A stretch of 64,000 bases of DNA from Bacillus thermozeamaize (GCA_002159075.1 LZRT01000060.1:3475-67474), one strand, 5' to 3'; shown: positions 9,599 through 58,500, counted from the stretch's first letter. The notes: generated by a model from the sequence alone, not told the origin. Numbers and translations: made by a program.

Positions 9599-9707
9599 CG
9601 ATTTTTCCTCCTTTCTTTTGCTTGATGGGAAACATGTCGGGCCCTTCGCGTCCACCTCCTTTTTTCACCTTGCAAGCCCAGTATAAGGAAGGCAAACCAC
9701 TTCTCTC

Positions 9708-36650: not shown

Positions 36651-36875
36651 ATGAGTGTCTCTATTGAGGAATTGGAACATTTACTGAGACATCTAAATGA
36701 CAAGAATAAACTGGTTGCAAAGAGTTTTTTGTCCTGGCTTGTAGAAAAACAGTTCGATGATGAGGATGACATGTTGACTCCGGATGATATAGAAGCCATT
36801 GAACAAGCCAGAAAGGAACTGAATAACGGGGAGACCAAGTCATTGGAGGACTTAAAGCGTGAACTCCAATTATAA
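36651..36875 (+). CDS. Putative antitoxin of a RelE-type toxin-antitoxin pair
   Basis: 74-aa acidic protein directly upstream of the RelE-like gene and overlapping it by 17 nt. GGGAGG RBS. Confidence 0.6.
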   Translation: MSVSIEELEHLLRHLNDKNKLVAKSFLSWLVEKQFDDEDDMLTPDDIEAIEQARKELNNGETKSLEDLKRELQL

Positions 36876-37128
36876 TATTCGATTTACAAAGCAAGCAAGT
36901 AGAGCGCTAGGTAAATTGGACAAAACAACAGCTAAAAGAATCATTCAAGCGATTGAATCTTTGAGTTATGATCCCTATCATCATTCACAGACCAAGAAGA
37001 TGAAGGGGTATGAAGGGCATTTTTTTCGTTTGAGGGTCGGAAATTTCAGGATAATATATGAGGTGATAGACAATCGACTTTTAATCGTCGTTGTAAAAAT
37101 TGGTTCCCGTGGCGATGTTTACAAATAA
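36859..37128 (+). CDS. relE: RelE/ParE-family type II toxin
   Basis: 89 aa. The sequence YNIRFTKQASRALGKLDKTTAKRIIQAIESL...LRVGNFRIIYEVIDNRLLIVVVKIGSRGDVY is the typical RelE/StbE pattern (RVGdYRiiY...v..i.hRkdvY). Confidence 0.85.
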   Translation: MNSNYNIRFTKQASRALGKLDKTTAKRIIQAIESLSYDPYHHSQTKKMKGYEGHFFRLRVGNFRIIYEVIDNRLLIVVVKIGSRGDVYK

Positions 37129-37256: not shown

Positions 37257-40200
37257 TTACTGGACAACTAACCGTGTTCTTTGTTCGGCCTCACGGTTTA
37301 AGCGTGCCACAACCCTTTTGATCGTCAGTTCACTTTTATTGCGTTTTAGTGATTCAGCCACACGTCTTCCGGCATCGGCGGCAGCTTTTGCTGCAAATTG
37401 TGGTACCTGTATGTGGCAATATTCACCAATACTTGGTATAGTCACATCATATACCAGATGTCGTTGGAATGAACTCAGGATTCGTATCGGGATGTTGGTT
37501 ATGAGAATGCGTTCACGTTCATTAATTGTCGACTCGACGGCTTTGATCACTGTTCCGAAAACAGCCTGATCCCCATCTTCTCCAGCTTTGGTTTGTAGTA
37601 AGTCGCGAATGATCAAAAAGTTGAGTAACTCTTGTACAAGTGCGATACGAATGTTCTCCCGTTCGATCCGCTCTGCGGCAAGATTGGGTTCCAGTTCTTT
37701 TCTAACCAAACTGCGCAATTGATCGAACAATGGTTTAATTTCCTGTTCGCTAATTTCTTCGTCCTCGTTCAGAGAAATATGTTTCAGGTCATCCCATGAC
37801 TGGATTAAGCGCACCTGGCGTATTCCATCTGTTCCCCGGCAAACGACAGCATAACCCACTCTATCCACACCGTTCATTCCTTCAACGGGGATGGTAATTC
37901 TCCGAACACATGAAGGTAGTTCGTAGTTTTGAATATGTTCAAGAATTTTCTCGAAATATGGATCTCCGTAGGAAGCAAAGTGAACTCTTTGTTTTCCATC
38001 AGTTAAACCTTCATCGTATAACTTTCGCGAGGCCGTCAATACGGTGCCGTCAGGCACACCAGGGATACCGCGTATTTCTAAGATCTCTTCCCCAGCTACT
38101 GTTTTCTTGGTACAACCACGGGATTTTAAATAACGGGATGTGCTGAGCGTTTCCCAGATGGCTTCCATCGTGACAGGAGCAGATGGATGTTGTGTATTAT
38201 CAGTAAAATGTTGATATATCTCAAACAATTCATGGGCCGGTATCTCCATGCGTGCATGATGTTGGAGTTGTTCTTTCAGGCGATTGGTCGATATGATATA
38301 GAGTTCTTCCTCGGTCAACGTTCCTTCTTCAAGTTGACGAAACTCATCTGGTTTAACCGGAAGAAGAGAAATTTGTTGAGTACCGACGATGAGGTTTGCT
38401 TTTTGCAAACGTTCTAATAGACGTCTGTATACAATTTCTTCTGCACTTCCAGCATAGAAGAGGTTCAAGACATAAATATGCTGATGTTTTTGACCGATAC
38501 GGTCAATGCGACCGATTCTTTGTTCAATCTTCATGGGATTCCATCCAAGGTCATAATTGATCAGCAGATCTGCAGTCTGTAAGTTTAAACCCTCTGCTGC
38601 GGCATCCGTGCAGACGAGAACATCGATTTCGCCACGCAAAAACCGTTCTTTCACTTCTTCGCGATCGCATGGGATCATTTGTTTTTGGTCTGGATCAAAA
38701 TACTCAGCTCCCTTCCCAGAATAAGTCCCAATTCGCATGTGTTGGTCAACCCTGCGAAGACGCGAGACAATATCTAAAAGAGTGTCGTAGAAACGGGTAA
38801 AAACCACCGTTTGCCGGATTCGGCCTGTCGACTGGTCTTTGCGACGTTCCAGTTGTTCCAAAAGAACCTTCATTTTCGATGAATCGCCGGTGAGATCGTT
38901 CAATTGCTGAAGCATCTTTTGGATTTGGTTTCTTTCCCATTCTAAATCGGGCATGCTCCGTCCTTGCAGCAGCACTTGAAACACTTCAACATCATCTTCG
39001 TTGTCACCTTCATATACCACTTCGTTCAAGGAGAAGCTGTTTATTTCATCTTCGTTAGTTTTCCAATCAAAATGATGCTTCAGAGTGGCCTCCACTTTGT
39101 CCAAACGCCGCTTTAACGTCTCCCGGAGAGCATACAGGCTGGAGGCAAACCGCAAACGAAGAAAACTGAGATAGAAATTCACCATTTGCCGATGTTGGGA
39201 GTTCCCGTGTTTTTGTATTTGTGCCATTAACCCTTTGCAGTAGGTTTCCAGTTGGGCGTAAATGCGTTTTTCTAAGTCGTTGAATGCAATGGGTTCCATA
39301 GGCAGGATGTGACGTTCGGCAAGATTTTGCTGCAATCGGCCGTATTCCCGATACACTTCAAGCAATTTTCTGGTATGTCGCAACATGACTCGGGATAGCG
39401 GGGCTCCGCTGAAGATAATGCGCAACAAGAATTGCCGTTCTACACCTCTGGGAACATATCCATTTTCCAGCCAGCGGCGAATCGTGTGCCGGTTGCGATT
39501 GTCAATGACGTACTGTTCAAAATAACGCCAAAGCATCGGATCCTGTTCACGGATGCCTAAAATGGCACGGCGGAGAAAAGTCCATTCCCATTCACTCAAT
39601 TCCTGTTCATTGAGAAGTTTTTCCAATGTTTGATAATACTCGAGTATCAGAGTGGGATCGAATTGAAACACCCCCACCCGATTGGTCAGGGCCAGCAAAT
39701 CACATACTTCCACGGGATGGATCTGCATCGGGGTGGCCGTAGCCAACCACAGACAACGTGTTTTTTCTCTCAATGCACTTTGCAGTGTCGTATACAATTG
39801 TCCATATTCGGGATGTGCGCTTGCTCCTCTGGACGGATTGTGCCGCCGGGCTGCATGCGCTTCATCAACCAATGCGACGTCAAATGATTGCGCGTTTTTC
39901 AGTTCTTCCACCCGTTCCCTCCGGGGTAACAGGCCTGTTGAAACGATTACTAGATCTGGTTCGTAAATCGAACTGGCTGGCCGTTGTTCTTCATGAGGAA
40001 ATTCATATTCGTGGGCCAGATCAGGAGTTGTGACGGCCCTACCAAACGACATGAGCATTTTGGTGGCCATTTGGCGTTGCCATTGTTTTGTCAAGCTGGC
40101 AGGTGCCGCGATCAAGATGCGTTTTGCCAGGCCAGACAAATATAACGAACGGAAGGCCAGACCTGCCTCGATTGTTTTTCCCAGACCAACTTCATCGCAC

Positions 40201-41174
40201 AGGAGGTAAGAATAGGGCCACGTTTCGACCAAGCGGCGCACGACAACCTGTTGATGCGGCCACGGTTCTACCGGTGCCGTTTCCATGCCGACAAACCTTC
40301 CGTTCGGCATTTTGGGCCCATCCCGCAAGATCGCAAACTGCAGCCGTTCCAGTACGGAGGGGGTGTCCTCAACTGGCATGTTTGCAACCGGTGTGCCATC
40401 CACCTCTTTGGGAATCGTGATTCCTTCAGCAATTTGCAGCATTCTGCGTCGCACTGCTTCGGGAAGAGTCAGCACCGGCATATGAGGGAGCTTGCCATCC
40501 CATAAGTTTTCAAAATCTTCTACCGCCTGTTCAACCCGTTCTTTCTCTGTTTCGCCTTTCCAGTCGCAATGGATGTCAATGTTTTCTGCATTGAGCACCA
40601 ATGCGTTTTTGGATTCGTTCAAGGAACCTGAACCGTATAACCGGTTTCCGTATTCGTCATACATAATGAACCACTTTTCATGGACATAACCATCTTCAAC
40701 ACTGTCAAAAGGCAAGGGTTCGCCGGTTTCCTTATGCAAGCGGAAAGCGACGCGAACCTCTAAATAACCGTGCGCGACCATCCAGGAAAGAAGAGAAACG
40801 CCATTCTGTACGCTTTCGGGCCACGATTCAAATTGTTTCAGTTCATCGTTCAATCGTGCTTCAAGTTGCTTCGCATCGCCTGCGAGAATCGCCTTGACAT
40901 CTTCAGGAGCCAGATCGGCCCCGACAATGAGGCGCATTTTTCCGTTCCGTTGGACAAAAGAGGAAAAACCTTGGGAAGCGGCAGCCAATGAGGAAGAACG
41001 GAAATACCCGGCGACGCGGTCATAACGTACGGCCAGCTTGAGGGCTGGAATGTAGAAATCGTGCAATATATTGACCGGACGGCCATCGATCATGGTAGAG
41101 GAGGTTTTGTAAGACAGACGCCAAGAGTGTGAACGTAACCCTTTCTGTTCGTTAGGATCATGTGGGTTCGTCAT
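37257..41174 (-). CDS. Fusion protein: N-terminal PLD-family (HKD) nuclease-like domain plus SNF2/SF2 helicase
   Basis: HKD-like VHEKWFIMYDE...GSGSLNES at the N-terminus. Helicase motif I LCDEVGLGKT, II LVDEAHAAR, III LATATPMQ, V CTDAAAEGLNLQ, VI EQRIGRIDRIGQ. Last gene of the four-gene module. Confidence 0.85.
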   Translation of the reverse strand: MTNPHDPNEQKGLRSHSWRLSYKTSSTMIDGRPVNILHDFYIPALKLAVRYDRVAGYFRSSSLAAASQGFSSFVQRNGKMRLIVGADLAPEDVKAILAGDAKQLEARLNDELKQFESWPESVQNGVSLLSWMVAHGYLEVRVAFRLHKETGEPLPFDSVEDGYVHEKWFIMYDEYGNRLYGSGSLNESKNALVLNAENIDIHCDWKGETEKERVEQAVEDFENLWDGKLPHMPVLTLPEAVRRRMLQIAEGITIPKEVDGTPVANMPVEDTPSVLERLQFAILRDGPKMPNGRFVGMETAPVEPWPHQQVVVRRLVETWPYSYLLCDEVGLGKTIEAGLAFRSLYLSGLAKRILIAAPASLTKQWQRQMATKMLMSFGRAVTTPDLAHEYEFPHEEQRPASSIYEPDLVIVSTGLLPRRERVEELKNAQSFDVALVDEAHAARRHNPSRGASAHPEYGQLYTTLQSALREKTRCLWLATATPMQIHPVEVCDLLALTNRVGVFQFDPTLILEYYQTLEKLLNEQELSEWEWTFLRRAILGIREQDPMLWRYFEQYVIDNRNRHTIRRWLENGYVPRGVERQFLLRIIFSGAPLSRVMLRHTRKLLEVYREYGRLQQNLAERHILPMEPIAFNDLEKRIYAQLETYCKGLMAQIQKHGNSQHRQMVNFYLSFLRLRFASSLYALRETLKRRLDKVEATLKHHFDWKTNEDEINSFSLNEVVYEGDNEDDVEVFQVLLQGRSMPDLEWERNQIQKMLQQLNDLTGDSSKMKVLLEQLERRKDQSTGRIRQTVVFTRFYDTLLDIVSRLRRVDQHMRIGTYSGKGAEYFDPDQKQMIPCDREEVKERFLRGEIDVLVCTDAAAEGLNLQTADLLINYDLGWNPMKIEQRIGRIDRIGQKHQHIYVLNLFYAGSAEEIVYRRLLERLQKANLIVGTQQISLLPVKPDEFRQLEEGTLTEEELYIISTNRLKEQLQHHARMEIPAHELFEIYQHFTDNTQHPSAPVTMEAIWETLSTSRYLKSRGCTKKTVAGEEILEIRGIPGVPDGTVLTASRKLYDEGLTDGKQRVHFASYGDPYFEKILEHIQNYELPSCVRRITIPVEGMNGVDRVGYAVVCRGTDGIRQVRLIQSWDDLKHISLNEDEEISEQEIKPLFDQLRSLVRKELEPNLAAERIERENIRIALVQELLNFLIIRDLLQTKAGEDGDQAVFGTVIKAVESTINERERILITNIPIRILSSFQRHLVYDVTIPSIGEYCHIQVPQFAAKAAADAGRRVAESLKRNKSELTIKRVVARLNREAEQRTRLVVQ

Positions 41175-41206
41175 GATTCGTTTCCACCTGCCTCCAACGA
41201 CCCTTT

Positions 41207-44200
41207 TTACGACTTCAAGCCGAATAACATTGCCTCCGCTTCTTTCCTCAGCGTATCCTCAGACATCTCCGCTGCCCAAACGGAAAGCAGGTCCAGAATC
41301 ACTTGTTCCTTTCCTTCCGCATGCTGTGCCAAATACGCACGTGCCACAGGCACATCTCCCTCACGATAACTCATAATCAGCCCGTGGAGGATGTCCCATT
41401 CCGTCTGTGGGTTTTCCAGCCGGCGTTTGTTGCGTTCTTCGGGTCTCGCTAAACGGAGTTTGGAATTTTTCCGCAGCAAGGGGGCGTGATAACCTGTCTC
41501 CTCTGCATGTTGATGCCGTGCTCGCCGGCCTTGATTTTCGTTGTTGATACCAATCATCCGTCCTTTGACGGTATACCCTGCTGGTTTTGCTTCCAAGCTG
41601 ATGTTGAGGGAGCGGGACAGACTCAAAGCTTCATCATAAGGAAATTCGGACAGACCGAAAATGCCGTACAGGGTCAGCGCGATTGCCGTTTCTGGATTGA
41701 GATCCTCTACCTTCAAGCGGTTGTTGGTAATCCGCGCAACCTGATATTCTGCAACTACAGCGCTGGCTTCTCGCATGGCGCGCATTGGAGTTACCAGTTC
41801 GTCGCCGTCCAGTACGGGCCAATTCTCAGAAAGGACTTGCAATGCACGGCCGTAACTTGCGACCATTTCATCGACCGGATTTAACTTGAGTGGTGCAAAC
41901 TCTTTTAGTCCTTCACGAACGGCTTCACGCACTTTCTGAGCGACGCCCGTGCCGCCAAATCCGGACCAGGTTGCGGGAACGTCGTTGGTTTCGAAACGCT
42001 TGCGACAGGAGAGGAAGATGGAACTAGCTGCAGCAGCCATGTTTTTTTGATGTGTTGATTCTGATGATTCCGATTCCACAGGTAGGGAGGTCGTGATCGT
42101 CCATCCGTTTTCTATTAACGAACGAGTCAATGCTTCCCAAGCTTCCTGTGTCTTGTGAGTAAACATGATTGTCATGATGCCATCATCTTTGAGAACACGG
42201 CGACATTCGGAGAAAATTTCACCCATCATTCGTTCATATTCTCGCGCCGCATTGGCTGAAGAACCATCGCGTGCCGGATTGGCCACAGCTTCATCCGTTT
42301 TGTTTGTCAGTCGTCGGCGGTAAACATCAGGATACAAATCCTGTAAAGTGCGCCGCTGCCAGACATAAAAGTAATCGGAGAGTTCTGCATACTGCACGTT
42401 GTTATAGTATGGGGGATCCATACAAATCAGGTCTACCGATTTTTCTGGCAAATCGGTATGAGCTGCTGTTCCGTGTAGGATGGTAACAGGCGGAGCCGAA
42501 CCGTTTAATTTTTCATGCAGCGGCTTTAATAGCTCGGCAATGCCGGAATAAGCGTCAAGCACTTGGGAAAGCGCCCATGCAGCTCCGGAGTTGGGGCCGG
42601 TAAAGATCATTTCGCCAAATGTCCATTTCAGCGAAAAATCATGTCTGCCAAATGTTCCTTTAACGATGCTACGAGTATATTCCCACCTTGTCTGCTTGCT
42701 GTTATAGTCAAGCCCTTTATCAATCATAAATTGCAAATACGTCACGACGGCACGTCCGCGTTCTTCGCCCAGTTCATTTAGGATCTGGGGTTTGATGCGG
42801 TTTAGTTCTTCCACAAGGATCAGGTGGCCCAAAAGTTGACGCGGTGTAAACATGTCACACCAGCGGTTCATTCCAAAACGAAGCGGCTCTGCTGTTTTAT
42901 GCCCTTGTGGAATACTTTCTGTAGGGATCAAGCCCATCTGTTCCCATTCCGGCCATTTCTCCTGCAAGCGCTTCTCAGCTTCAGCCAGTGCTTGCAAATC
43001 CCGTTCATTAGGCGGGCGGAAAAAGCGAACTTTTTCCGTTTTGACTTCGCCGGCTCTTTCCCCGCTTTTATATCGCTGGGGGTTTCCGTTTTTATCCAGC
43101 TTGGGTTGATAGCGAACAGCTACGACACAATACAATCGATCAGTCCAACGGCCATGGGGCGATTCTCCGCGTGCTTGAGCTTTGATCTCATCAGCAGGGA
43201 TTGCCTGGCGGCAATGGACACACATCCCAACGCCATTATTTACCGTTGCAAAGTTTGGGTCTTCACCATTTGGACCCCGATTCCCTTTGACGCGGTAGGT
43301 TTCAAAACGTACCGTGCCACCCTGGGAACGTCCGTCCGTTACAATGCGAACCCCCCATTTGTCACCTTCTTTTGACAGCCAGCAAGTGTTCAATAGCGGC
43401 GCCTCACCACCGCAGTGTGGGCAAGTGACTTGGCGACAATAAAGCAATCCAATTTGGTCATGTTCAGGACCAGAAAATTGAGGAATTAGTTCTGGACATT
43501 TAGTGCAATGTTTGTACAGGTAGTTTAGTTCTTGTTTAGGTAGCGGAGAGAACGGTGTAACATCTGCCATATTTTTCCCAACATGTGATACGAGATGTTC
43601 TCCCCATTTTTTGATATCGGTAATCAGTCCTTCTCCAAACTTCACGGGATAATCGAGTGTTGCATAAAGAATGACATTAGCTACAGGATTTAAATCATTT
43701 GCAATTACGCTATAACCAAGACGTAATGCTTCAAATGGTATTGAACCTCCGCCAGCTGTAGGGTCGTACACTTTAATATTTGGCGAATTAAAGAACGGTT
43801 GATGCATAAAAGCCCTTCCATAACCGTACAAATCCTCGGGATCCCATTTTATTTCAGAATCAAGTATCTTTTTTACTTGATCGGTTTTGGCGAATTCAAT
43901 CCGCTCATTTACATGGGCAGGATCGGCAGTGATGCGTTGAACAGGCAGGATTGACCCGATATCAGGTAAAGGTTCAGGAAATGGTTGAGATTCTTGCTCC
44001 CAACGTATAATTACCGGATGGTTTTTAAAAGACGGGTCAGTCGCACAAAGCTTTTGAATGATTTCCCTGTTTTTTGCCCGTCGTTCCTGCTCTTTTTTGA
44101 TCCATTGGAGAACAGTATGATCAACCCTGATCCATTCTTCATGTGCATCATTTGTCTCGATGCGATTCACAATTTGACCTGTTAGTGTCCAAGGTTGTCC

Positions 44201-44458
44201 ATTGACGATGGCCTGCACTTTTTCGATGCCAAGTTGCCGGAGAAACCACTCCGGATCAGTATATGCAGGCAAAAGAGAACCAAGTATGGCTGCCCGGCTA
44301 GGCGTCAGCGGGCGCCGTGCCCACCAAACATGTAAAAAGTAAAGAGGAGGGAGTGCAGAACTTGCACCCCGTTCCCGTTGCGTTTCGGCGCCGACCTGAT
44401 GGCACGGAAATCCTGCTTCGATCAGACGTCGATCTTTGCGTTGCATGTGGCTGGTCAT
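41207..44458 (-). CDS. DUF1156-family DNA methyltransferase (N6-A/N4-C type, Zn-ribbon insert)
   Basis: N-terminal DUF1156 signature LIEAGFP...LHVWWARRPL. SAM motif I YDPTAGGGSIPFEA. Zn-ribbon CPHC...CVHC. Catalytic motif IV CMDPPYY. Confidence 0.85.
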   Translation of the reverse strand: MTSHMQRKDRRLIEAGFPCHQVGAETQRERGASSALPPLYFLHVWWARRPLTPSRAAILGSLLPAYTDPEWFLRQLGIEKVQAIVNGQPWTLTGQIVNRIETNDAHEEWIRVDHTVLQWIKKEQERRAKNREIIQKLCATDPSFKNHPVIIRWEQESQPFPEPLPDIGSILPVQRITADPAHVNERIEFAKTDQVKKILDSEIKWDPEDLYGYGRAFMHQPFFNSPNIKVYDPTAGGGSIPFEALRLGYSVIANDLNPVANVILYATLDYPVKFGEGLITDIKKWGEHLVSHVGKNMADVTPFSPLPKQELNYLYKHCTKCPELIPQFSGPEHDQIGLLYCRQVTCPHCGGEAPLLNTCWLSKEGDKWGVRIVTDGRSQGGTVRFETYRVKGNRGPNGEDPNFATVNNGVGMCVHCRQAIPADEIKAQARGESPHGRWTDRLYCVVAVRYQPKLDKNGNPQRYKSGERAGEVKTEKVRFFRPPNERDLQALAEAEKRLQEKWPEWEQMGLIPTESIPQGHKTAEPLRFGMNRWCDMFTPRQLLGHLILVEELNRIKPQILNELGEERGRAVVTYLQFMIDKGLDYNSKQTRWEYTRSIVKGTFGRHDFSLKWTFGEMIFTGPNSGAAWALSQVLDAYSGIAELLKPLHEKLNGSAPPVTILHGTAAHTDLPEKSVDLICMDPPYYNNVQYAELSDYFYVWQRRTLQDLYPDVYRRRLTNKTDEAVANPARDGSSANAAREYERMMGEIFSECRRVLKDDGIMTIMFTHKTQEAWEALTRSLIENGWTITTSLPVESESSESTHQKNMAAAASSIFLSCRKRFETNDVPATWSGFGGTGVAQKVREAVREGLKEFAPLKLNPVDEMVASYGRALQVLSENWPVLDGDELVTPMRAMREASAVVAEYQVARITNNRLKVEDLNPETAIALTLYGIFGLSEFPYDEALSLSRSLNISLEAKPAGYTVKGRMIGINNENQGRRARHQHAEETGYHAPLLRKNSKLRLARPEERNKRRLENPQTEWDILHGLIMSYREGDVPVARAYLAQHAEGKEQVILDLLSVWAAEMSEDTLRKEAEAMLFGLKS

Positions 44459-44483
44459 GATCGTTTCCCCTTTGCATTACCCC

Positions 44484-45101
44484 TCAAAATGATTTCCGAA
44501 GTTTTTCAAGCATCGTTTGAATCGATTTGTCTCCGGGTTGTCCTCCCAACATAATGCGCATGCCAGCAAGTGCCCAGCGGCTTCCGGCTGCTCCGTATTG
44601 TGTACTTCTGGTCAACCAATAGTTGGCTTCTTCAGCTGTGAAGCGTGCCACACGCCAAGCGATGAGCTCGACACGATCCATGTCCAATAAGCGTTCAGAT
44701 AGTTTAAATATCAGGGACAGTTTGGGTCCGGTTGCATGGTCAAGCGGCAAGTTTCCTCGAAATGTGATCTGGCCATTGCCAAGAAAACGATGTAATTCTA
44801 ATGGGGTCCCATCTTCGTCGCATACACTGGATAAGATTTGGCGAATGACAGGCAAACAGCGGCGCAGGGGTTGTCCGTATAACAAACCCCTGTCGCGTGT
44901 TTTGCGATTAGTTGCAGATGGATTGGTTTGTCGGTGATTATCTTCCGGATAATACCGTTCCTTCACTATCAGGACTGGGCTTGGTTTATCCTTATGTTCA
45001 GTGATCCGCAGTATCCAGGGCGCTTTTTTTTCAAGCGACTGGATCCGTTCCAGATCCTCCATCTCAAAATGGAAGCCATGTTCTTTCGTATTTTTGGCCA
45101 T
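44484..45101 (-). CDS. Small conserved accessory protein of the DUF499/DUF1156 module (tentatively DUF3780-like)
   Basis: 205-aa ORF packed between the ATPase and the methyltransferase (gaps of 18 and 25 nt). The family assignment comes from memory of typical neighbourhoods, not from a motif. Confidence 0.45.
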   Translation of the reverse strand: MAKNTKEHGFHFEMEDLERIQSLEKKAPWILRITEHKDKPSPVLIVKERYYPEDNHRQTNPSATNRKTRDRGLLYGQPLRRCLPVIRQILSSVCDEDGTPLELHRFLGNGQITFRGNLPLDHATGPKLSLIFKLSERLLDMDRVELIAWRVARFTAEEANYWLTRSTQYGAAGSRWALAGMRIMLGGQPGDKSIQTMLEKLRKSF

Positions 45102-45119
45102 GGTTCTGTATGCTCCGAT

Positions 45120-48100
45120 CTACGTTTTTTTGAGTTCCTGGATAAATGGGCAATTTTCATCCGGTTGCTCCACATCAAGGAAGGCTGCTGTGTAATCTCC
45201 CCGGCTCACGATGCCATCCAGTATTTCGAACAGTTCACCTAATGCCTTCATCGATTCCGGTGTCGCATTTTCCAGTCTGAGGGTGAGTGTTCCTCCGCCT
45301 GGAAGTAGCAGATCGAGGAATTCCATCGTTTTGATTTGAGTCCGGGCTCCTCTATTATAGAGGCTGCCGATGCGGCGAAGAAGAGGGAGGAGCTTGTCCG
45401 CACCTTCTTTTCCGCTTAGATGGAATCCACCTGCTGATGCTTGCTGCCATCCCTTTTGTTTTGCTTGATCAGGAGTGAACAACAGATCGCTTTCGTAAGG
45501 TACGTAAAAAGACGCCTCAAATCCTTGGATGAATTCAGGTTGTTCTGGCGTATAGACATCATATCGGGAAGCCACCAGTTTTCCTTCTTTGACAAGATCG
45601 ATCACGGCCTCTTTTACTTCTTGGTCGGGGAACTGGCCGTATATACTCTGAACTTCGGTGATGACTTGGCCCAAGGTGCTTGTGCCCTTATCACTAATAA
45701 TGTCCAAAACCACTTGTTGAACTTGTTGAGGATCATTCTTTTGCCTTTCTAACCATCCGCGTTGGTTGACGCCCTGTACAGTAATGAGCATATATCCAGG
45801 GGCTGAAAGATCGACATTTAATGGGATTTCTTGGTCCTGATGATATAGCTCGGATGGCGTGCTTTCCCCTTCCGATAAGCGATAAACGCACCATACGCCA
45901 TTTTTGACCCCTGCTCGTATGATTTGTTCAAAAACGGCGGGTGACTCCAGAACAGGCCATTTTCGTACACAGTAGAAGTTGCGCCGCAGATTTTCTAAGG
46001 AAACCGTGTCTTCCAAGCTGAAAAACAGCTGGCGCAGATTGACCAGGTCCTCTTGTGTCGTGTGGCTGTGGGTGATCAGTTCCTTGTCTTGAACCAAAGA
46101 TTCCCGGATGAGCTGTATAAAAGTGGCGCCTCCTTCGCCACCAGCCGTTTTGATGTCTTTGCGCACAATAAATCCAGTGGTAGAGGGATAGTAAAGCCCG
46201 GTGTAAATGGCTGAAACGGCGGTTTGCAACGCCTGTTCACGTTCGCTCCGACGCTCCTTAAAGTCAGATTCCTGCAGGCGGCGCGGGCTGATTCCATAGT
46301 TTTCAGGTTTTTCCGCAAGCGTGCGCATGGCTAACACTTGCCTGGCGACAAGTTCGATTCGTTGACGCGCTTCCTCTGCCTTGGTGCGATGAAGATTGTC
46401 CATGTCCAATTGTTCAGATGTGTCTTTTACGACGACTGTGTCCGGAACCAGAAGAAAAATCAGGTTTTGCTGTTCCCGTGGCCGGTTTGGCCCTTTCGTG
46501 GTGATCATCGCCTCGACATCGATGATCTCTGCTGTGGGTGAGACCACGCCCAAGACTGGTCTGCCTTTTCCATCCGGAAGATGTTCTGGAAGAGTTACAT
46601 CATGTTCTATATGAAACAAATCGGAGTGATTGGAGATGATTTTGCGGGCGGTACCTTTAATCAACTCTTTTACTTGGTCGCGCTCCAGTGTTCTGCGGAT
46701 TCTGGCTAACACACTGTTAATTGTCGGCTCTTCGCTTGCAAAATATCTCCCTTGTTCATGCCGAAGGTAAAAGGCGCTTTCATTGATTTCCTCCAAAGCA
46801 ATGCGCACTTGAGGGGGTGTCAATCCGGGAAAAGAAACACTGAACAAGGCTTCTGATTCAGTAATCCCGAAGATTCTCGAGTTTAATCCTTCTTCCCGTC
46901 CTACCAGGCTGTGCAGGAAAACGGTTTTCCATGTGTATTCGTAGAGTGGATGGCCCTCCGGATGAGGGTTTCGTTGATCAGCCAGTTCTGCATTGCTGTG
47001 CCCGCCTTCTAAAGTACCGGTATCCACACCCCCTACATCTGCATTTAACACGTACAATAAATCTGAAGCGCCTGTCCGGCCGAGGATTTCATTGACCACC
47101 CGATCAGAACGCATGTCCAAGTGGCAAGTATGGATCATGGGTACAGGTTGCTGTTTTTGCCACAAACTACGCACGGCCATCGAAAGTACCCGCAGCACGC
47201 CACGGGTGCCTTGGAAATTTTCGGCGCTAGCCAATTTCTTGTTTAAAAAATCCACCAGTGACGGGTGGAAAGGGTAATTGGCAATCATGCGTTGACGCAG
47301 ATTTTCGCTGACTGCTTCCTCCGGCAACAAGTGCGCGTTGCGCCGATACATTTCCATATATTTTTCAGCGACGGATTGGGCCGCTTCCCGATCCACGGAT
47401 ATAAACAGGCGCTTTGCAAAGACGGATGAAATTTCCGCCGCTTGTACGGGGGTAATCTGAACAGCATCCCGCGCGACCACGCTGGATACACCTTGAACGG
47501 CCTGTTCTCCGATGCTCAATGCATCGTCTTCACTTACTTCTTCTCCGCGCACTTTGCTGATGAGTTGTGCCAATTGCTTGGTCTGTTTGGAAAAAGCATC
47601 TGTCGCACTGGCCAGTGTCAGGACTATGGCGATCCCTGGTTGATTCCGCGCATATCCATGAAGGGCCATCAAGAATGCGGCAAGTTGATCCGCTCCGTTG
47701 GAACGAGCTGCCTCGAGACGTGCCGCATATTGAGCAAGCTCATCCAACATGATAAGAACCTTTTTTCCTTTGAGTACTTTATCAAAATAGTGTTTGCCTG
47801 GCGCAGCGTAAGAGTTGGCATCTTCTTCAACCTCACGGTACAACGATTCTCCACCGATTTGAAAGGCGATTTCTCCCCACAAAGTATACGGCACGAGGTC
47901 TCCTCCCCGGGGTTTGTGAACCGGAATTTCATCTCCGGCTACACCCACGACACAAATCGAATTTGGTTCCGGAAGAAGGGATGGGTCCAGTATATCTTTG
48001 ACCACGTGCCGAAGTTGGGTGCCTTGAAATGCCAGGTGGGTACAAGCGATAAGTGTATGTGTTTTTCCACCACCAAAAGCGGTTTCGAGACGGTGGATTG

Positions 48101-48344
48101 CGGGTACTGTCATGTCGCCGTTTATTCTGCTGAAAATTTCAGTCAAAATTTGGCGGAGGCCTTGCGTTGGATAGGTTGCTTCCTGAAAGAATAGCTCTGC
48201 ATTGGTATAAATGCTGTCCACTGCCGTACGTCCACTTCGATAATACTCGATGATAGGGCTAAGCGAGGCAGTAAAAATTTCCGGATTGAACATTCCAGCT
48301 AAAAGCTCTGGCCGAGGTTGGCATGTTTCGAGTACAGAGCGCAC
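45120..48344 (-). CDS. DUF499-family P-loop ATPase (BrxC/PglY-like)
   Basis: Walker A ETAFGGGKTHT, Walker B VLIMLDELAQY, about 1075 aa. The likely start is GTG 48344 (GGAGGG RBS 9 nt upstream). The ORF track extends to ATG 48419, which lacks an RBS. Confidence 0.8.
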   Translation of the reverse strand: MRSVLETCQPRPELLAGMFNPEIFTASLSPIIEYYRSGRTAVDSIYTNAELFFQEATYPTQGLRQILTEIFSRINGDMTVPAIHRLETAFGGGKTHTLIACTHLAFQGTQLRHVVKDILDPSLLPEPNSICVVGVAGDEIPVHKPRGGDLVPYTLWGEIAFQIGGESLYREVEEDANSYAAPGKHYFDKVLKGKKVLIMLDELAQYAARLEAARSNGADQLAAFLMALHGYARNQPGIAIVLTLASATDAFSKQTKQLAQLISKVRGEEVSEDDALSIGEQAVQGVSSVVARDAVQITPVQAAEISSVFAKRLFISVDREAAQSVAEKYMEMYRRNAHLLPEEAVSENLRQRMIANYPFHPSLVDFLNKKLASAENFQGTRGVLRVLSMAVRSLWQKQQPVPMIHTCHLDMRSDRVVNEILGRTGASDLLYVLNADVGGVDTGTLEGGHSNAELADQRNPHPEGHPLYEYTWKTVFLHSLVGREEGLNSRIFGITESEALFSVSFPGLTPPQVRIALEEINESAFYLRHEQGRYFASEEPTINSVLARIRRTLERDQVKELIKGTARKIISNHSDLFHIEHDVTLPEHLPDGKGRPVLGVVSPTAEIIDVEAMITTKGPNRPREQQNLIFLLVPDTVVVKDTSEQLDMDNLHRTKAEEARQRIELVARQVLAMRTLAEKPENYGISPRRLQESDFKERRSEREQALQTAVSAIYTGLYYPSTTGFIVRKDIKTAGGEGGATFIQLIRESLVQDKELITHSHTTQEDLVNLRQLFFSLEDTVSLENLRRNFYCVRKWPVLESPAVFEQIIRAGVKNGVWCVYRLSEGESTPSELYHQDQEIPLNVDLSAPGYMLITVQGVNQRGWLERQKNDPQQVQQVVLDIISDKGTSTLGQVITEVQSIYGQFPDQEVKEAVIDLVKEGKLVASRYDVYTPEQPEFIQGFEASFYVPYESDLLFTPDQAKQKGWQQASAGGFHLSGKEGADKLLPLLRRIGSLYNRGARTQIKTMEFLDLLLPGGGTLTLRLENATPESMKALGELFEILDGIVSRGDYTAAFLDVEQPDENCPFIQELKKT

Positions 48345-48434
48345 CTTGGATTTCCCTCCGTCGATGATGATCTTCTCATTGTTTTCGACATGAAAAAACA
48401 AAATCCTGCACCTCATCATAGAAGGGATATTTTT

Positions 48435-48471
48435 GTTCTAAGAACATTCATTCGGTGACAAACTTTTGTCA
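48435..48471. promoter_or_regulatory. Two palindromes in the divergent control region between the two defence operons
   Basis: GTTCT-A-AGAAC at 48435-48445 and TGACAAA-CT-TTTGTCA at 48456-48471. Both are perfect inverted repeats and candidate operators. Confidence 0.35.
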
Positions 48472-48524
48472 GAAAGTATTGGTATAACAGCAATAGATTA
48501 ACTTTTACATATTGAGGTGAGTGG

Positions 48525-49646
48525 ATGACGGAAACAAATATGGACTTAGGGCATATGGGTTTAGACCGGCAAATTGACAAGATGTTCTTGCTTCTGGCCA
48601 TTGGCGCGAGGAAATGGCAGGCGGACATAACGCGGGTGCCTGCGGAATTGCATGAAGGGCATTTACGGTTGATTCGGTTCGCCGTCCAGCATCGCGTGCC
48701 TTATCCGGCCGATTTGCACGAGCTGCTTCAATGGCTGCATCGTCCCATAGCAGAATGGCCGCTTCCGCACGTGGCCGAGCGTTTTCCGGCGGATGAGCCG
48801 GTGCTCGTGGATTATGCGGGGTTATCTATCTTTTATGAAGAATGGTTGGAGGAAAACGTTTCTGTGGAAGAGTCGGAACAGAAAGTGATGCGCGAAATAT
48901 TGAGCTATTGCCGGGAGGCCACGCCACCTCTGGAGCAGGCGTATCGAGCGATCCGCACTTTTTTGATTGAACATCCTGTGATTGAATTTATCAAGTTGAG
49001 AGCATTTCTTTTGTCGTTTGACAAGGAATTGCAAGAAAAAGTGCGGGATTGTTACGAAGAGATCAACCTGCCTTATCCCCGAATTTATTTGTGCCCTTAT
49101 TGTGGGTGGACGTTGACAAACCGTGACGGCGAATGGGAATGCACGCGCTGGGTATGCAAGCGCAACAGCGATTTCACACACTTTAATGTGCTGGATACTT
49201 CCGGTCATCAGAAGTACTATCGGCTCACCAAAGGCATTCAAAAATATGTCCAAAACCCGGGGCTTGCCGAGCTGGCACTGGCGCGGAAGCTCGAAGAACG
49301 GGGATGGGATGTGGAACTGTATCCGGACGTGGACCGCGTGGATCTGCGCATCACAAAAGATCAGATGCGAAAAGAGATCGATGTGAAGGATTACAGCCAC
49401 CCGAAGTTGCTGGCCGACTATCTTCTCGCCAAGATGGAGCAGGAAAATTGGGATAAGGATGTCATCTATGTCGTTCCGCAATATCAGGAGCGTTTTCATC
49501 CCGATTATGCGAAACGAGTTTTGCAATATCTCAGGCAGTCCCGGGAGAGATCCCCGCTGAGCGATTCCGCTTTTGAGGCTGCTGTCCAAGAAGTGCAAGT
49601 GATGGCGGAACGAGAATTTTTCATCCGTCTGGGGGAGGAATCATGA
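48525..49646 (+). CDS. Restriction-endonuclease-fold protein with Zn-ribbon (pPIWI-RE-associated REase)
   Basis: CPYCGW...ECTRWVC Zn-ribbon. PD-(D/E)xK-like PDVDRVDLRI...EIDVKDY near the C-terminus. First gene of a coupled three-gene operon (ATGA overlap with gene 2). Confidence 0.7.
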   Translation: MTETNMDLGHMGLDRQIDKMFLLLAIGARKWQADITRVPAELHEGHLRLIRFAVQHRVPYPADLHELLQWLHRPIAEWPLPHVAERFPADEPVLVDYAGLSIFYEEWLEENVSVEESEQKVMREILSYCREATPPLEQAYRAIRTFLIEHPVIEFIKLRAFLLSFDKELQEKVRDCYEEINLPYPRIYLCPYCGWTLTNRDGEWECTRWVCKRNSDFTHFNVLDTSGHQKYYRLTKGIQKYVQNPGLAELALARKLEERGWDVELYPDVDRVDLRITKDQMRKEIDVKDYSHPKLLADYLLAKMEQENWDKDVIYVVPQYQERFHPDYAKRVLQYLRQSRERSPLSDSAFEAAVQEVQVMAEREFFIRLGEES

Positions 49647-52600
49647 GGAAAAACGGGAGGCAAATAACGGAGGATTTGCGGAAACGATTTGTTGATTTGA
49701 CGGGAGACCGGGATGCGGCGGAGATGATTTTTCCGGTCGAGCTTCTCTTATGGGGGTTTTACCAGGTTCATTCGGAGGGGAAGGCTCAAGAGGCGTGGTC
49801 GCTGATTCCGGGCTATGATGAGCCGATTTTGCCGGGGACGCACCGGGAGCTGATTGCCCGTTTGCGGGTGCTGTTTCCCACATTCCGAAACCGCCAGGCT
49901 TGGCACGATCTGATTCAGGAATATCAGGAGATCGATTTGAAGTACCGGCTGTTTGCCATTACACCGGAGGGATATCTTCAGAAAAACACCCCGGACTTCA
50001 TTCCGGATCGGGAAACGGTCTACCGGCAAATTTTGGATAAGCCGATTCCTTTTCATGCCGTCGAGAATACGTTTGCCAAGCCGGGTCTGTTTGTTTATCA
50101 GAGATCGATCGATGGTCAGGTGCAGGAATTTCGCGGGGAGCTTTTTTCTCTCCCGAAAGTGGAAGGGAGAGTTAGGCGTCTGCCGCTTTACCGGTCGAAA
50201 AAACGCGTTGGCGGTTCATTTCCCGCGGACTGGATAGATATGTCCGAGGAGATGGATGAGATCTTGGGTGGGAGCCGTTTTCGGGATTTTGTCCGGCAAA
50301 GCCAATTTATACCTTTAGGGGACAAGCCATTTCAATATGCCGGAAACCTGCACATCGCCGGCGGCTTGGGCGTTGGCAAGTCCACTTTTATCTTGCTTGA
50401 AACCTACCGTCTGGTCAAAAAACATCAGGTGAAAGTGGGCATCATCGAGGGGTCGGTTGAAGGCGTCCTGGAAAAAGTTCGCGAATTGCGCAAGCTCGGG
50501 CTGAAGGCGGTTCCGATCATCGGCAGAAGCAACCGGACAGGGCATTTGGCGGAATTTTTATACTCGGTGAGCAAAAAGGCAGAGGATCTCACCTCGTTGC
50601 GGGAAGAAGCTGCGGACGAGCTCCGGTACCTGTCCGGAAAATGCGTTATTCACGCCTTGGCGGAAGATTTTGCTGGTGACCAGCACTATCCTTGCGCGGC
50701 ACTTCAACAGGAAAAACAGAAGCGATTACTTTGCCCATTGTACGCGCAATGCGGCGTGATTCGTCCGGAATTGGAGCTTGTCGATGCGGATGTGTGGGTG
50801 GCCACCGCCCCCAGCGTCTTAAAGTCCCGTTTTTCGCCGATGGTTGATCCGTATCGAAGGACCTATTATGAAGCGATGTACCAATACCTCGATGTGATTT
50901 TTGTCGATGAGGCCGATCAGGTGCAAATGGCGTTTGATCAGGCCTTTATCGGACAATACGATTTGATCGGCAAGAGCGATGACTTGTTTGGCCGTTTGGT
51001 GCGGTCGACGGCCCCTCGCGTGGCCAGCGATCCGGGGTTATATTCACATACGCTAGTATCAAATTGGCTCAGTCACTTCGATTATCTTCGGAATATCGTC
51101 AATAAAATGTATCATTTGCTGTCCCGTTCCCCTTCTTTGGCATCGTGGTTGAAAAACCGCATCTTTCATGTCTACCGGATTTTACACGATGTGGCGAAAC
51201 ATCTTTGGGGTGAGAACTATCAAGAGCAGGCGGGTTATAAAATGTTGTCAGACTACGCAAAAGAACCCCTCAACCACCTTGTGCTTTCCCCGATTGTCGA
51301 TCAATTGCTGAATCCCATCGATCAGCAGAGGAAAAAAAACCTATTGGCGCAATGTTTAAAAGCGATCGCGAACGAAGAAAAGCGATATGAAGACGAACCC
51401 AAACTGTTTCAGAAACTGGAGTTTTTCCTCTATCTGGCCCGCATTGACGAACATCTGCGGTATCTCACAACCAATCATCTGTATGTCAACCCGTATCTGA
51501 ATTTGGAAGAAGAGATTGGGCAGATGTTTCGCACGACGCCGAGGGATTATCACCCCTTTATCAAGGACAGCATGACCGGCCTGTTGTTGGGATACCGTTA
51601 CCTTGCTACGGACGGAGTCCGGGAAGGGCATTTCAAGCTCCTTGAATATAACGGGGTAGGCAGGGAATTGCTGAAAGACTGGCACCGCATTTATGAAGAT
51701 GCCGACCAGTGGGAAGGGCCAGCGGTCGTGTTTTTGTCAGGGTCCAGTTACGCGCCCGGGTCGCATCATTTTCACCTCGACATTCCGGTTCATTGGCTCT
51801 TGATATCCCAGCGGGAGAAGCCTTGGATTGATCAGCGGTTGAGACTGATTCCCGATTTGGAAGCCAATCGCTACCTGTATGTGTCTGGCACAAGGCATCG
51901 GGAAGAACGGACGTTGGCGATTCAGAAAATGGTGCGAGATTTGAAGGGGACAATTGCCAGTGAATTGGCATACTGGCGGGACGAAAACCGGAAAATCTTG
52001 CTTGTAGTGAATTCGTACGAGGATCTTGAGGGCGTCCGTGAAGTGTTACAATCCGATCCAGACTGGAAAGATTGCTTTCGTCTGTTGTCCAGAGAGAGGG
52101 TGGAAGAGGGGCATTTCATTCCCAAACGGTTTATCCGAGATTTTGCGCAGGAAGAGGCGGACGTTTTGGCGGTGCCCCTGACGGCCGTAAGACGCGGTTA
52201 CAACATTTTGCAACCGGATACCGGCCGTTCTCTGTTCGGCAGCGTCTTCTTCCTGGTGCGTCCATACCACGTCCCAGGGGATATGGCCTACATCATCCCG
52301 TCCTTACACGGTTACTTGCCTTCATATTTAAGGACGATCGGTTCGAAACGCCTTCAATACGAAGATGGGATCAAACACTTGCGGCATAAGAGTATTCAGT
52401 TTTTGGAGGATATGGTCCGCAAGCCGCAATTTTGGGCTCTCTTGGACGAAGATGAACGCCGGCTGTTGTCTTGGTACACCTTTATCCTCGTGTGGCAGAT
52501 GATCGGCCGCCTGTTGCGCGGGGGCACCAATGCCCGCGTCTGGTATGTGGACAGCAAATTTGCCCACCCACATGGCGTACATGGGACAGGGGTAGAAGAC

Positions 52601-52732
52601 AGCATGCTGGCTAGTTGGAAACAGATGTTGCAGGAATTGGCGGGCGACCTGATTGTGCAGGAACTCTACGGCCCATTTATGCAATCGATAGACCATTTGA
52701 TTAACAGTGAAAGGGAGATAGCGGATGTCTAA
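49643..52732 (+). CDS. SF2 helicase, XPD/DinG-like with putative 4-Cys Fe-S insert
   Basis: Walker A GGLGVGKST, Walker B VIFVDEADQ, motif VI QMIGRLLRG. Four Cys (C-x16-C-x12-C-x5-C) lie between Walker A and B, where XPD/DinG helicases carry their 4Fe-4S domain. Confidence 0.75.
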   Translation: MRKNGRQITEDLRKRFVDLTGDRDAAEMIFPVELLLWGFYQVHSEGKAQEAWSLIPGYDEPILPGTHRELIARLRVLFPTFRNRQAWHDLIQEYQEIDLKYRLFAITPEGYLQKNTPDFIPDRETVYRQILDKPIPFHAVENTFAKPGLFVYQRSIDGQVQEFRGELFSLPKVEGRVRRLPLYRSKKRVGGSFPADWIDMSEEMDEILGGSRFRDFVRQSQFIPLGDKPFQYAGNLHIAGGLGVGKSTFILLETYRLVKKHQVKVGIIEGSVEGVLEKVRELRKLGLKAVPIIGRSNRTGHLAEFLYSVSKKAEDLTSLREEAADELRYLSGKCVIHALAEDFAGDQHYPCAALQQEKQKRLLCPLYAQCGVIRPELELVDADVWVATAPSVLKSRFSPMVDPYRRTYYEAMYQYLDVIFVDEADQVQMAFDQAFIGQYDLIGKSDDLFGRLVRSTAPRVASDPGLYSHTLVSNWLSHFDYLRNIVNKMYHLLSRSPSLASWLKNRIFHVYRILHDVAKHLWGENYQEQAGYKMLSDYAKEPLNHLVLSPIVDQLLNPIDQQRKKNLLAQCLKAIANEEKRYEDEPKLFQKLEFFLYLARIDEHLRYLTTNHLYVNPYLNLEEEIGQMFRTTPRDYHPFIKDSMTGLLLGYRYLATDGVREGHFKLLEYNGVGRELLKDWHRIYEDADQWEGPAVVFLSGSSYAPGSHHFHLDIPVHWLLISQREKPWIDQRLRLIPDLEANRYLYVSGTRHREERTLAIQKMVRDLKGTIASELAYWRDENRKILLVVNSYEDLEGVREVLQSDPDWKDCFRLLSRERVEEGHFIPKRFIRDFAQEEADVLAVPLTAVRRGYNILQPDTGRSLFGSVFFLVRPYHVPGDMAYIIPSLHGYLPSYLRTIGSKRLQYEDGIKHLRHKSIQFLEDMVRKPQFWALLDEDERRLLSWYTFILVWQMIGRLLRGGTNARVWYVDSKFAHPHGVHGTGVEDSMLASWKQMLQELAGDLIVQELYGPFMQSIDHLINSEREIADV

Positions 52733-55574: not shown

Positions 55575-58500
55575 GTTTGTAGCTTACCTATGAGGGATTG
55601 AAACGAGTATGACACGGATGATAAGATGGTCTCTTATAAGGGTTTGTAGCTTACCTATGAGGGATTGAAACACGGCTTCAGAAGATGACCAATTGGAAAT
55701 CGTGGTGACGGTTTGTAGCTTACCTATGAGGGATTGAAACAAGGCCAAATACTTCACACGACCGCGAAAGTTGGACTTTGTTTGTAGCTTACCTATGAGG
55801 GATTGAAACCTCTACGCATAAAAATAGTTGACATCGTACGCTACAGGTTTGTAGCTTACCTATGAGGGATTGAAACCGGTATAGCGGTAGATTCTAATAA
55901 AAATATATATGGTTTGTAGCTTACCTATGAGGGATTGAAACTGGCATTTTCCTATCCATAAATCCAGCCGTTTACCGTTTGTAGCTTACCTATGAGGGAT
56001 TGAAACTTGGATGCATACACCGTCCGGGTGCGCTGTTCTGTGAGTTTGTAGCTTACCTATGAGGGATTGAAACACCGTTGGCATACAGCAATGCGTCTGA
56101 ACGCCATTTCCGTTTGTAGCTTACCTATGAGGGATTGAAACACCTTTGGCATGTCTCACACCCCTATTCCAGCGGCTCGTTTGTAGCTTACCTATGAGGG
56201 ATTGAAACAGGGAAAGGTGGTGGATATATACGCAAATGCACCGAGTTTGTAGCTTACCTATGAGGGATTGAAACCCAAAGGCGTTTCATCCTTTAATTCC
56301 CACACCCCAAGTTTGTAGCTTACCTATGAGGGATTGAAACGGCGCATTCCTTCCGATAGGATTCCTTCAGAAGATACGTTTGTAGCTTACCTATGAGGGA
56401 TTGAAACTAGTGCTCCAGTGTAAATTTCGCCATTTTAATCCTGTCGTTTGTAGCTTACCTATGAGGGATTGAAACACGAAACCTTGTCTTCATCGGCCTA
56501 TGGATGGCGGCGTTTGTAGCTTACCTATGAGGGATTGAAACGTAATAGCCCTGGAGAGCAGGACAGAAACATTGCGAAGTTTGTAGCTTACCTATGAGGG
56601 ATTGAAACTTCGGAAGGGGAATGTCCCGATCAACTCGGCCACGAGGTTTGTAGCTTACCTATGAGGGATTGAAACCCAGATGTTCCCGAACGCAACGCGG
56701 TTGTCACGGCAAGTTTGTAGCTTACCTATGAGGGATTGAAACTATTCCTCGCGGTGGGCTTCGTTGGCCGAATCGTAGAGTTTGTAGCTTACCTATGAGG
56801 GATTGAAACAGGTATGGTAAAAAGCACAACGGATTGGGCAATCCGCGTTTGTAGCTTACCTATGAGGGATTGAAACTGACGAAAGCTTCCCAATTTATGG
56901 CAAAGCGGATGCGAGTTTGTAGCTTACCTATGAGGGATTGAAACATGGGAACCTCGTTTACCGTTGTAAAACGACGGTCAATGTTTGTAGCTTACCTATG
57001 AGGGATTGAAACTCCTTCCTTCCGTTGACCACCTGCGCATCCGCATCACTGTTTGTAGCTTACCTATGAGGGATTGAAACTCCTTCCTTCCGTTGACCAC
57101 CTGCGCATCCGCATCACGGTTTGTAGCTTACCTATGAGGGATTGAAACCGGGATAGTCGTTACACCTTACGGTTGTTTGGCATGTTTGTAGCTTACCTAT
57201 GAGGGATTGAAACAAGGGGATGAAGCGGACGGCATCTTGCAGATCGATGTGTTTGTAGCTTACCTATGAGGGATTGAAACAATCCTTCCTCGCCCCGCCG
57301 ATTTTCTCCCCGACATCGTTTGTAGCTTACCTATGAGGGATTGAAACGCTTCTCCTTTAATGTGATATGTACCGTAGGATCTCCAAGTTTGTAGCTTACC
57401 TATGAGGGATTGAAACGATGCATAATTCACGTAGTTTACGATCGTAATCAATGGTTTGTAGCTTACCTATGAGGGATTGAAACCTCATCTTTTCTTCGGC
57501 TATGCGGATGTCGGAAATGGGTTTGTAGCTTACCTATGAGGGATTGAAACGGGTATGGCCACTCCGGAAAAAGATCCAACTCTCGCGTTTGTAGCTTACC
57601 TATGAGGGATTGAAACCTTTCTTTCAGTCTTGGCACGTGCAACCGTCCCGGGTTTGTAGCTTACCTATGAGGGATTGAAACTTTTGCGCTGCATCGGCTT
57701 TGCGGCTTTGCGCTCTCAGTTTGTAGCTTACCTATGAGGGATTGAAACTGAAGCCTGCGGCTGGCTTCCGCCTCATCGGACGCCTGTTTGTAGCTTACCT
57801 ATGAGGGATTGAAACGCGATCGCCCTAGCAATCTTACGCGTGACGTAAGCATGTTTGTAGCTTACCTATGAGGGATTGAAACTCCAACTTAACCATTCAC
57901 TTCCCTAACGTCACATACACGTTTGTAGCTTACCTATGAGGGATTGAAACTTAGCCCGTCGAACAAGCCGTTGGCTGCAAGTGGCGTGTTTGTAGCTTAC
58001 CTATGAGGGATTGAAACGCGGCGAAAAGAGGAAGCGCGTGGAAGTGTACCACAAGTTTGTAGCTTACCTATGAGGGATTGAAACGCGCAACCCCATCGCC
58101 AATCGTGCATGATAGTGGCCTGTTTGTAGCTTACCTATGAGGGATTGAAACATGTACCGGATGGGTGCCGTATCGAGCAATCCATCCAGTTTGTAGCTTA
58201 CCTATGAGGGATTGAAACCCGGTTTCATGATGCCGCCTCCTGTCTTTTTCGCAGTTTGTAGCTTACCTATGAGGGATTGAAACTACCCCTCCAACAGGCA
58301 AACCTTGGAATGAAAGCCAGTTTGTAGCTTACCTATGAGGGATTGAAACGTCTACGTCATCACCTCCACACCTAGATTGCCTGTCAGTTTGTAGCTTACC
58401 TATGAGGGATTGAAACGACTCAGCCAACTGCCAAGCCCTTCCACTGCAGTCGCGTTTGTAGCTTACCTATGAGGGATTGAAACAAGCTTCCGGGCCACCG

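Follow-up and report, generated by a model that had tools for sequence, protein, structure and literature searches.

BREX-related (BR) systems are built from a DUF499 ATPase, an N6-methyltransferase and a Snf2 helicase that mirror BrxC, PglXI and BrxHII of Type-3 BREX (bacteriophage exclusion) (Rakesh & Krishnan, NAR 2026). In the same classification, Type-1 BR corresponds to Hma (helicase-methylase-ATPase), whose helicase combines a TUDOR domain and a Snf2 core with a PD-(D/E)XK nuclease at the C-terminus; in Type-2 the helicase carries an HKD nuclease at its N-terminus and a standalone DUF3780 gene is added, the latter in 98% of Type-2 taxa; and Type-3 includes PglZ and iSTAND and lacks a nuclease fusion. 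Two FnIII-like domains precede the C-terminal RRM of the ATPase in 53% of Type-2 taxa, and are thus not universal (Rakesh & Krishnan, NAR 2026). The Type-2 quartet, previously Gao_RL, has been renamed MANTIS, with components MtsA-D (Shaw et al., bioRxiv, 24 Sept 2026, doi 10.64898/2026.09.23.753747). Here we analyze a metagenome-derived stretch of 64,000 nucleotides from Bacillus thermozeamaize (GCA_002159075.1, LZRT01000060.1:3475-67474; hereafter the window), in which four consecutive, co-oriented minus-strand open reading frames (ORFs), genes A to D, are, judged by their domains and motifs, an intact immune operon of this already known DUF499-centered family. Most likely, methylation by the quartet marks host DNA, and invading DNA that lacks the mark is cut; the departure from the characterized MANTIS form appears to lie mainly in a different small accessory protein.

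The MANTIS work provides the mechanistic frame for this comparison. MtsC hemimethylates asymmetric 6-bp sites only if the AAA+ protein MtsA loads it, and ATP hydrolysis gives turnover. MtsB is a dimer with a positive surface that stimulates methylation; it is essential, its role is unexplained, and it was called unique to MANTIS. For restriction, each of the four proteins and both ATPases are required, and unmodified sites in inverted pairs are restricted most strongly. The MtsD dimer holds one PLD (phospholipase D) active site, and MtsD resembles SauUSI (doi 10.64898/2026.09.23.753747). The original prediction for this locus, made from sequence alone, was aware of no established mechanism for such a module; this has been superseded by the preprint.

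The A-B, B-C and C-D gaps are 18, 25 and 32 nt. The four products were searched against Pfam, PADLOC and NCBIfam, and motif invariance was read from homolog alignments (65 homologs for A, 50 for C and 40 for D). In the A product, Pfam recognized DUF499 (3e-31) and a C-terminal DUF7744 domain (8e-37), and PADLOC matched HmaC (4e-71) and DUF499 (1e-43); the score against NCBIfam DUF499_antiphage (NF042962), 184 bits, lay below the cut-off of 1200, so that equivalog level was not reached. The Walker A (GGGKTH116) and Walker B (MLDE224) motifs are present, and in 65/65 homologs neither GGGKTH nor the DE of Walker B varies. The ORF encodes 1099 aa; because homologs align only from residue 26 and a GGAGG lies 10 nt upstream of a GTG at 48344, the true start is most likely this GTG, giving a protein of ~1074 aa, which fits the predicted length of roughly 1075 aa. 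A PDB sequence search with A gave no match.

The C product matched DUF1156 (1e-13) and N6_N4_Mtase (3e-07) in Pfam, and HmaB (3e-71), DUF1156_MTase (9e-43) and PglXI (1e-17) in PADLOC; like A, it stayed under the NCBIfam equivalog cut-off (NF042963; 226 bits, cut-off 1000), and it had no match in a PDB sequence search. Its motifs are LHVWWARRPL42, AGGGS235 and DPPY681. Motif I lies upstream of motif IV, and a large central insert, corresponding to the target recognition domain (TRD), carries a conserved four-cysteine zinc knuckle. GGG and DPPY are invariant in 50/50 homologs, and LHVWWARRPL, C346xxC and C413xxC vary little or not at all. Three CxxC motifs are present, where two knuckles had been predicted earlier, and conservation is limited to those at 346 and 413. 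The invariant DUF1156 loop (residues 42-51) would coincide with the minor-groove loop of MtsC (aa 37-58).

The putative effector, D, was recognized by Pfam as SNF2 and Helicase_C, with a weak PLD match (PLDc_2, 0.005). Its N-terminus matched more specific models strongly: PADLOC PbeA (3e-67, residues 34-446) and PLD_Helicase (6e-64). The match to NCBIfam phospholipD_antiphage (NF042964) was likewise strong (1.6e-100, 338 bits), although under the cut-off of 1100. PADLOC BrxHI/BrxHII (2.5e-53) and the DrmD and DrmA helicase-core models also matched. The motifs H165-E-K167...D173...G-S-L-N186, GLGKT330, DEAH437 and QRIGRIDRIGQ885 are present; H165, K167, D173 and G183-x-L-N-E-S, as well as helicase motifs I, II and VI, are invariant in 40/40 homologs. 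There is one HKD motif only, so that an active site would need a dimer, and a single HKD per protomer fits the dimeric single-site arrangement of MtsD. The C-terminus had no NOV_C or PD-(D/E)XK match even at E≤10, and no TUDOR domain was found. A PDB sequence search with D returned generic Snf2/RapA cores only, the closest being RapA (3e-22).

These results bear out most of the original prediction: the four ORFs and their tight minus-strand arrangement are as described, the calls of a DUF499 P-loop ATPase, a DUF1156 methyltransferase and a PLD-SNF2 helicase fusion with the PLD domain as nuclease effector all agree with the database matches, and every motif quoted in A, C and D is present and invariant in 40-65 homologs. 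Set against this conservation are variable stretches at residues 661-705 and 886-975 of A, at 91-225 and 271-345 of C (the latter just before the zinc knuckle) and at the C-terminus of D, which would fit specificity or sensor regions.

In its build the quartet resembles MANTIS. The order A-B-C-D is identical to MtsA-D and to the quartet named "anti-phage-associated" by NCBI on an Acinetobacter baumannii plasmid (DUF499, DUF3780, DUF1156, PLD-helicase). In common with MANTIS are a DUF499 ORC/Cdc6 AAA+ ATPase, a DUF1156 N6-adenine methyltransferase with motif I, central TRD and DPPY, an N-terminal HKD/PLD domain joined to an SF2/Snf2 motor with no TUDOR domain, the lack of PglZ, and a small basic protein of similar size between ATPase and methyltransferase. 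The residues mutated in MANTIS (Walker A Lys, Walker B Glu, DPPY, PLD His and helicase Walker A Lys) all have invariant counterparts here.

The MANTIS feature that is absent is the standalone DUF3780 protein. The B product matched DUF7680 alone (Pfam, 1e-31), with no second Pfam family even at E≤10, including no helix-turn-helix (HTH) family, and no match in PADLOC or NCBIfam. As a family DUF7680 is compact, numbering 552 clusters at the 90% identity level and only 175 at 50% among 1.84 billion representatives, and its conservation is strong (65% mean column identity). Its proteins are basic (pI 9.6-10.1; B itself, 9.6). The literature searched had no mention of DUF7680 or DUF7744. An AlphaFold2 (AF2) model of B (predicted local distance difference test score, pLDDT, 82) has the element order beta3-alpha-beta-alpha5, and a PDB fold search with it gave no match (best E 0.098). 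Three strands, a helix, a fourth strand and a helical bundle are common to the AF2 models of DUF7680 and DUF3780, the latter (pLDDT 55) being good for element-order comparison only. A low-scoring alignment of the two families is colinear, pairing GNLPLD with GKVKLD on the same strand and REEAxYWLTRAT with PEERWWLYSKTA on the same helix.

From the operon slot, element order, charge and an ASCH fusion, we infer that DUF7680 is functionally equivalent to MtsB. Remote homology between DUF7680 and DUF3780 is possible, as the slot, the predicted element order and ASCH fusions are common to both families. DUF3780 is fused to ASCH and RAMA domains in BR systems (Rakesh & Krishnan, NAR 2026). In parallel with these fusions, a profile search identified a 340-aa protein (P0270) as an ASCH-DUF7680 fusion.

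To place the quartet among its relatives, a distribution scan was made with one genome per species, and 80 related loci were examined. DUF7680 relatives occur in at least 166 species of several phyla. In essentially all 80 loci where the contig is long enough, A-B-C-D lie on one strand in the same order. These loci span Bacillota, Desulfobacterota, Chromatiaceae, Synergistota, Brocadiaceae and Armatimonadota, and carriers include cultured thermophilic and anaerobic Bacillota (Moorella, Desulfofundulus, Kyrpidia). The quartet recurs across many phyla, and also on plasmids, without the partners that flank it in the window; none of the 80 loci has homologs of the neighboring pPIWI-RE and ParE genes. 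The operon is therefore autonomous, with no BREX or DISARM (a defense-island system linked to restriction-modification) partner in the window and with neighbors that never recur in related loci.

In an all-against-all BLAST comparison, A, C and D were closest to the DUF7680-bearing quartets of Aminobacter and Nostoc plasmids (225, 410 and ~370 bits, respectively). For A and C, a Type-1 system of Thermus followed at 161 and 225 bits, and the canonical quartet of Type-2 was the most distant at 121 and 117 bits. DUF7680 systems thus seem to form their own lineage, one with the architecture of Type-2. A more far-reaching proposal, which we advance tentatively and at somewhat less than even odds, is that the DUF7680 quartets are a separate fourth lineage of DUF499-centered BR systems, in which ATPase and methyltransferase are nearer to Type-1/Hma, the effector is Type-2-like, and a different, highly conserved small protein stands where MtsB, the essential co-activator, would be, either as its replacement or as an MtsB that diverged past recognition.

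Six related loci and the Nostoc plasmid carry other defense genes embedded in the quartet, at either the B-C or the C-D junction; among them are GmrSD_N (with or without Schlafen/AlbA_2), Abi_2, AlbA_2 + HATPase_c_4, OLD-like AAA_15/AAA_21 ATPases, DUF3800 and VapBC. The DUF7680 operon tolerates, or recruits, such auxiliary effectors, as described for BR and Hma systems. The canonical MANTIS-type quartet, on A. baumannii plasmid pB20AB01c (289-18220), lies directly downstream of Tn7-like transposition genes (Mu-type transposase, AAA ATPase, TnsD and TnsE) with an XRE regulator alongside, which suggests that it travels as Tn7-like cargo.

We consider it quite likely that the quartet is a restriction-modification (RM)-like system working broadly like MANTIS. 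By homology, AAA+ ATPase A would load the monomeric methyltransferase C on short asymmetric sites, the small basic protein B would promote methylation, and hydrolysis of ATP by A would give turnover, so that host DNA would end up hemimethylated with N6-methyladenine (m6A). Unmodified sites on incoming DNA, read through A, B and C, would license the HKD-Snf2 protein D, which would dimerize to form one composite PLD active site, translocate on DNA and cleave it. Every biochemical step in this scheme, like the assignment of MtsB's job to DUF7680, is carried over from MANTIS.

Several points weigh against this interpretation. DUF7680 stands in place of DUF3780 with no significant sequence similarity: hhalign comparison of the two families gave nothing significant at any of three settings (probability 0.2-0.4%, E 0.17-0.29), and the element-order likeness depends on the poor DUF3780 model. 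The ATPase has DUF7744 and lacks the FnIII pair; A had no Fn3-type match, unlike the canonical A. baumannii ATPase, which has CHB_HEX_C_1 and Fn3_assoc matches. The helicase is ~400 aa longer at the C-terminus, where it has a variable region of ~375 aa that the canonical protein of 905 aa lacks. Identity of A, C and D to the canonical quartet is only ~22-27%, their scores are far under the NCBIfam equivalog cut-offs, and A and C score higher against Hma (Type-1) models than against PADLOC DUF499 and DUF1156_MTase. The nuclease activity of MtsD itself has not yet been demonstrated in vitro (doi 10.64898/2026.09.23.753747).

One rival is behavior as reported for the Hma (Type-1 BR) system of Halomonas: the helicase-nuclease alone would give abortive-infection-type protection, and methyltransferase and ATPase would be dispensable or regulatory, with no marking of self and non-self. 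The best PADLOC matches of A and C are HmaC and HmaB, both are nearer by BLAST to the Thermus Type-1 than to the canonical Type-2 system, and HmaA alone protected E. coli from T4 while pre-methylation by HmaB was without effect (PMC11232893). On the other hand, D has an N-terminal HKD domain and neither TUDOR nor a C-terminal PD-(D/E)XK/NOV_C domain, the four genes are strictly co-conserved with invariant methyltransferase and ATPase motifs, and the architecturally identical MANTIS needs all four proteins (doi 10.64898/2026.09.23.753747); we therefore regard Hma-like behavior as improbable. Less improbable, though still unlikely, and partly overlapping with the MANTIS-like model, is that B is not an MtsB equivalent and is an unrelated component with some other job, such as a reader of modified bases or DNA, a transcriptional regulator of the operon, or an inhibitor or antitoxin of the nuclease, so that the logic of the system would be unlike that of MANTIS. 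DUF7680 and DUF3780 are different Pfam families without significant profile similarity, the high column identity of B is unlike that of a fast-evolving sensor, and ASCH fusions would suit a reader too, as proposed for DUF3780 (Rakesh & Krishnan, NAR 2026). Against this, B and MtsB are alike in operon position, size range, predicted order of secondary structure and basic charge, the colinear though non-significant alignment places the GNLPLD/GKVKLD and REEAxYWL/PEERWWL pairs on equivalent elements, and B has no HTH match in Pfam.

[quoted passage not shown] The pPIWI-RE operon diverges just 105-180 nt away, and D also matches DrmD and BrxHII models. However, PADLOC found no PglZ, BrxA/B/L, DrmA, DrmB or separate DrmC among the ORFs at 25-55 kb, the quartet itself excepted, Pfam matches at 25-36 kb were all to housekeeping families, and the quartet is found by itself in many phyla, as well as on plasmids, with pPIWI-RE and ParE homologs absent from all 80 related loci. 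A composite is accordingly very hard to credit, and the earlier placement of the module outside a canonical BREX or DISARM locus, lacking PglZ, holds.

Other known systems overlap with the quartet in part. Hma (Payne 2021; PMC11232893) has the same core of DUF499 ATPase, DUF1156 methyltransferase and Snf2 helicase-nuclease, and auxiliary defense genes occur inside the operon in relatives. But in its helicase a TUDOR domain stands at the N-terminus, the position of HKD in D, and a PD-(D/E)XK (NOV_C) nickase at the C-terminus, there is no conserved small fourth gene, the gene order is different (Thermus pVV8), and the ATPase is often fused to HEPN. As to the equivalence to Hma that the original prediction had raised, Hma is the sister subtype (Type-1 BR), and the closer equivalent is Type-2 BR/Gao_RL/MANTIS. 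The description as RM-like and BREX-related, with a BREX type 3-like core lacking PglZ, does agree with the published BR class. The quartet has homologs of BrxC, PglXI and BrxHII in common with Type-3 BREX and Type-3 BR, but the window has no PglZ, BrxA, BrxF or iSTAND, and here the helicase itself carries the nuclease. Class 1 DISARM has in DrmD a Snf2 helicase that D resembles, and in DrmC a comparable PLD nuclease theme, but DrmA, DrmB (DUF1998) and a second helicase are lacking here. PbeABCD has the HKD + helicase N-terminus matched through PbeA, yet there is no CxC ABC ATPase (PbeC), DndE-like PbeD or dnd gene here; Pbe identity was ruled out, the HKD-helicase module alone being common to an otherwise unrelated ABC-ATPase/DndE system. 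MADS was also ruled out, its sole match being a weak one to the mad2 methyltransferase (3e-9).

Table 1. The quartet and its genomic neighborhood (window coordinates).
Feature	Position	Strand	Description
Gene D, MtsD-like	37257..41174	-	1305 aa; N-terminal single-HKD (PLD) domain, Swi2/Snf2 (RapA-like) helicase, variable C-terminus
Gene C, MtsC-like	41207..44458	-	1083 aa; predicted N6-adenine DNA methyltransferase, DUF1156 N-terminus
Gene B	44484..45101	-	205 aa; basic, DUF7680; operon slot of MtsB (DUF3780) in MANTIS
Gene A, MtsA-like	45120..48419	-	1099-aa ORF; DUF499 ORC/Cdc6-clade AAA+ ATPase, winged-helix-like regions, C-terminal DUF7744
Intergenic region between A and pPIWI-RE operon	48345..48524		180 nt, shared by the divergent operons; operon promoter presumably inside
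Palindrome GACAAAAGTTTGTC	48459-48472	-	perfect 6+6, inside the shared intergenic region (minus-strand sequence)
ParE-family toxin and upstream small ORF	36651-37128	+	ParE 89 aa, 2.5e-13; convergent with gene D
pPIWI-RE operon, complete	48525-55214	+	PprRE 373 aa, 2e-34; PprDinG 1029 aa, 2e-108; PprPIWI 829 aa, 2e-120
CRISPR array	55575-61365 and 62976-63468	-	95 repeats of GTTTGTAGCTTACCTATGAGGGATTGAAAC (Rfam CRISPR-DR2)
IS256/Mutator-family transposase gene	61519-62745		Transposase_mut, 7e-132; splits the CRISPR array
nos cluster (nitrous-oxide reductase)	2612-9655	-	NosZ-like propeller/cupredoxin protein, NosD, ABC ATPase and permease, cytochrome c, radical-SAM/SPASM protein

A promoter scan of the intergenic region upstream of A stayed at background level with no convincing sigma-70 match; a terminator scan also gave background level only. 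The palindrome in that intergenic region is not kept upstream of A homologs in 63 related loci; a part in pPIWI-RE regulation, or chance, may account for it. No member of the pPIWI-RE operon has an NCBIfam name.

Near 36 kb, G+C falls from ~0.60 to ~0.45-0.50, and the ParE pair lies at the edge of this low-GC island, where no tRNA or integrase was found. The 74-aa ORF overlapping the toxin gene on its upstream side had no Pfam match and is presumably the antitoxin. Beyond the pair, downstream of D, are a quinone oxidoreductase-like gene, an acyl-CoA dehydrogenase, MnmA and UbiA, none with a PADLOC match. The CRISPR array may run on past the end of the window, and no cas genes were seen among the window ORFs examined. 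The nos cluster hints that the host reduces N2O.

The novelty here is a divergent sister lineage with DUF7680 in the MtsB slot; in other respects this is an ordinary, correctly recognized defense operon. The family is widespread, and MANTIS is its first mechanism. Equivalog-level annotation will miss or mislabel DUF7680 systems, as probably will defense-finder rules keyed on DUF3780. Because the DUF7680 lineage keeps the whole architecture and swaps the small protein, for which a confident structure prediction can be had, it offers a natural comparison for the job of the small co-activator. If the separate lineage is real, comparing DUF7680 with MtsB would show what the MtsB step in ATPase-activated methylation requires.

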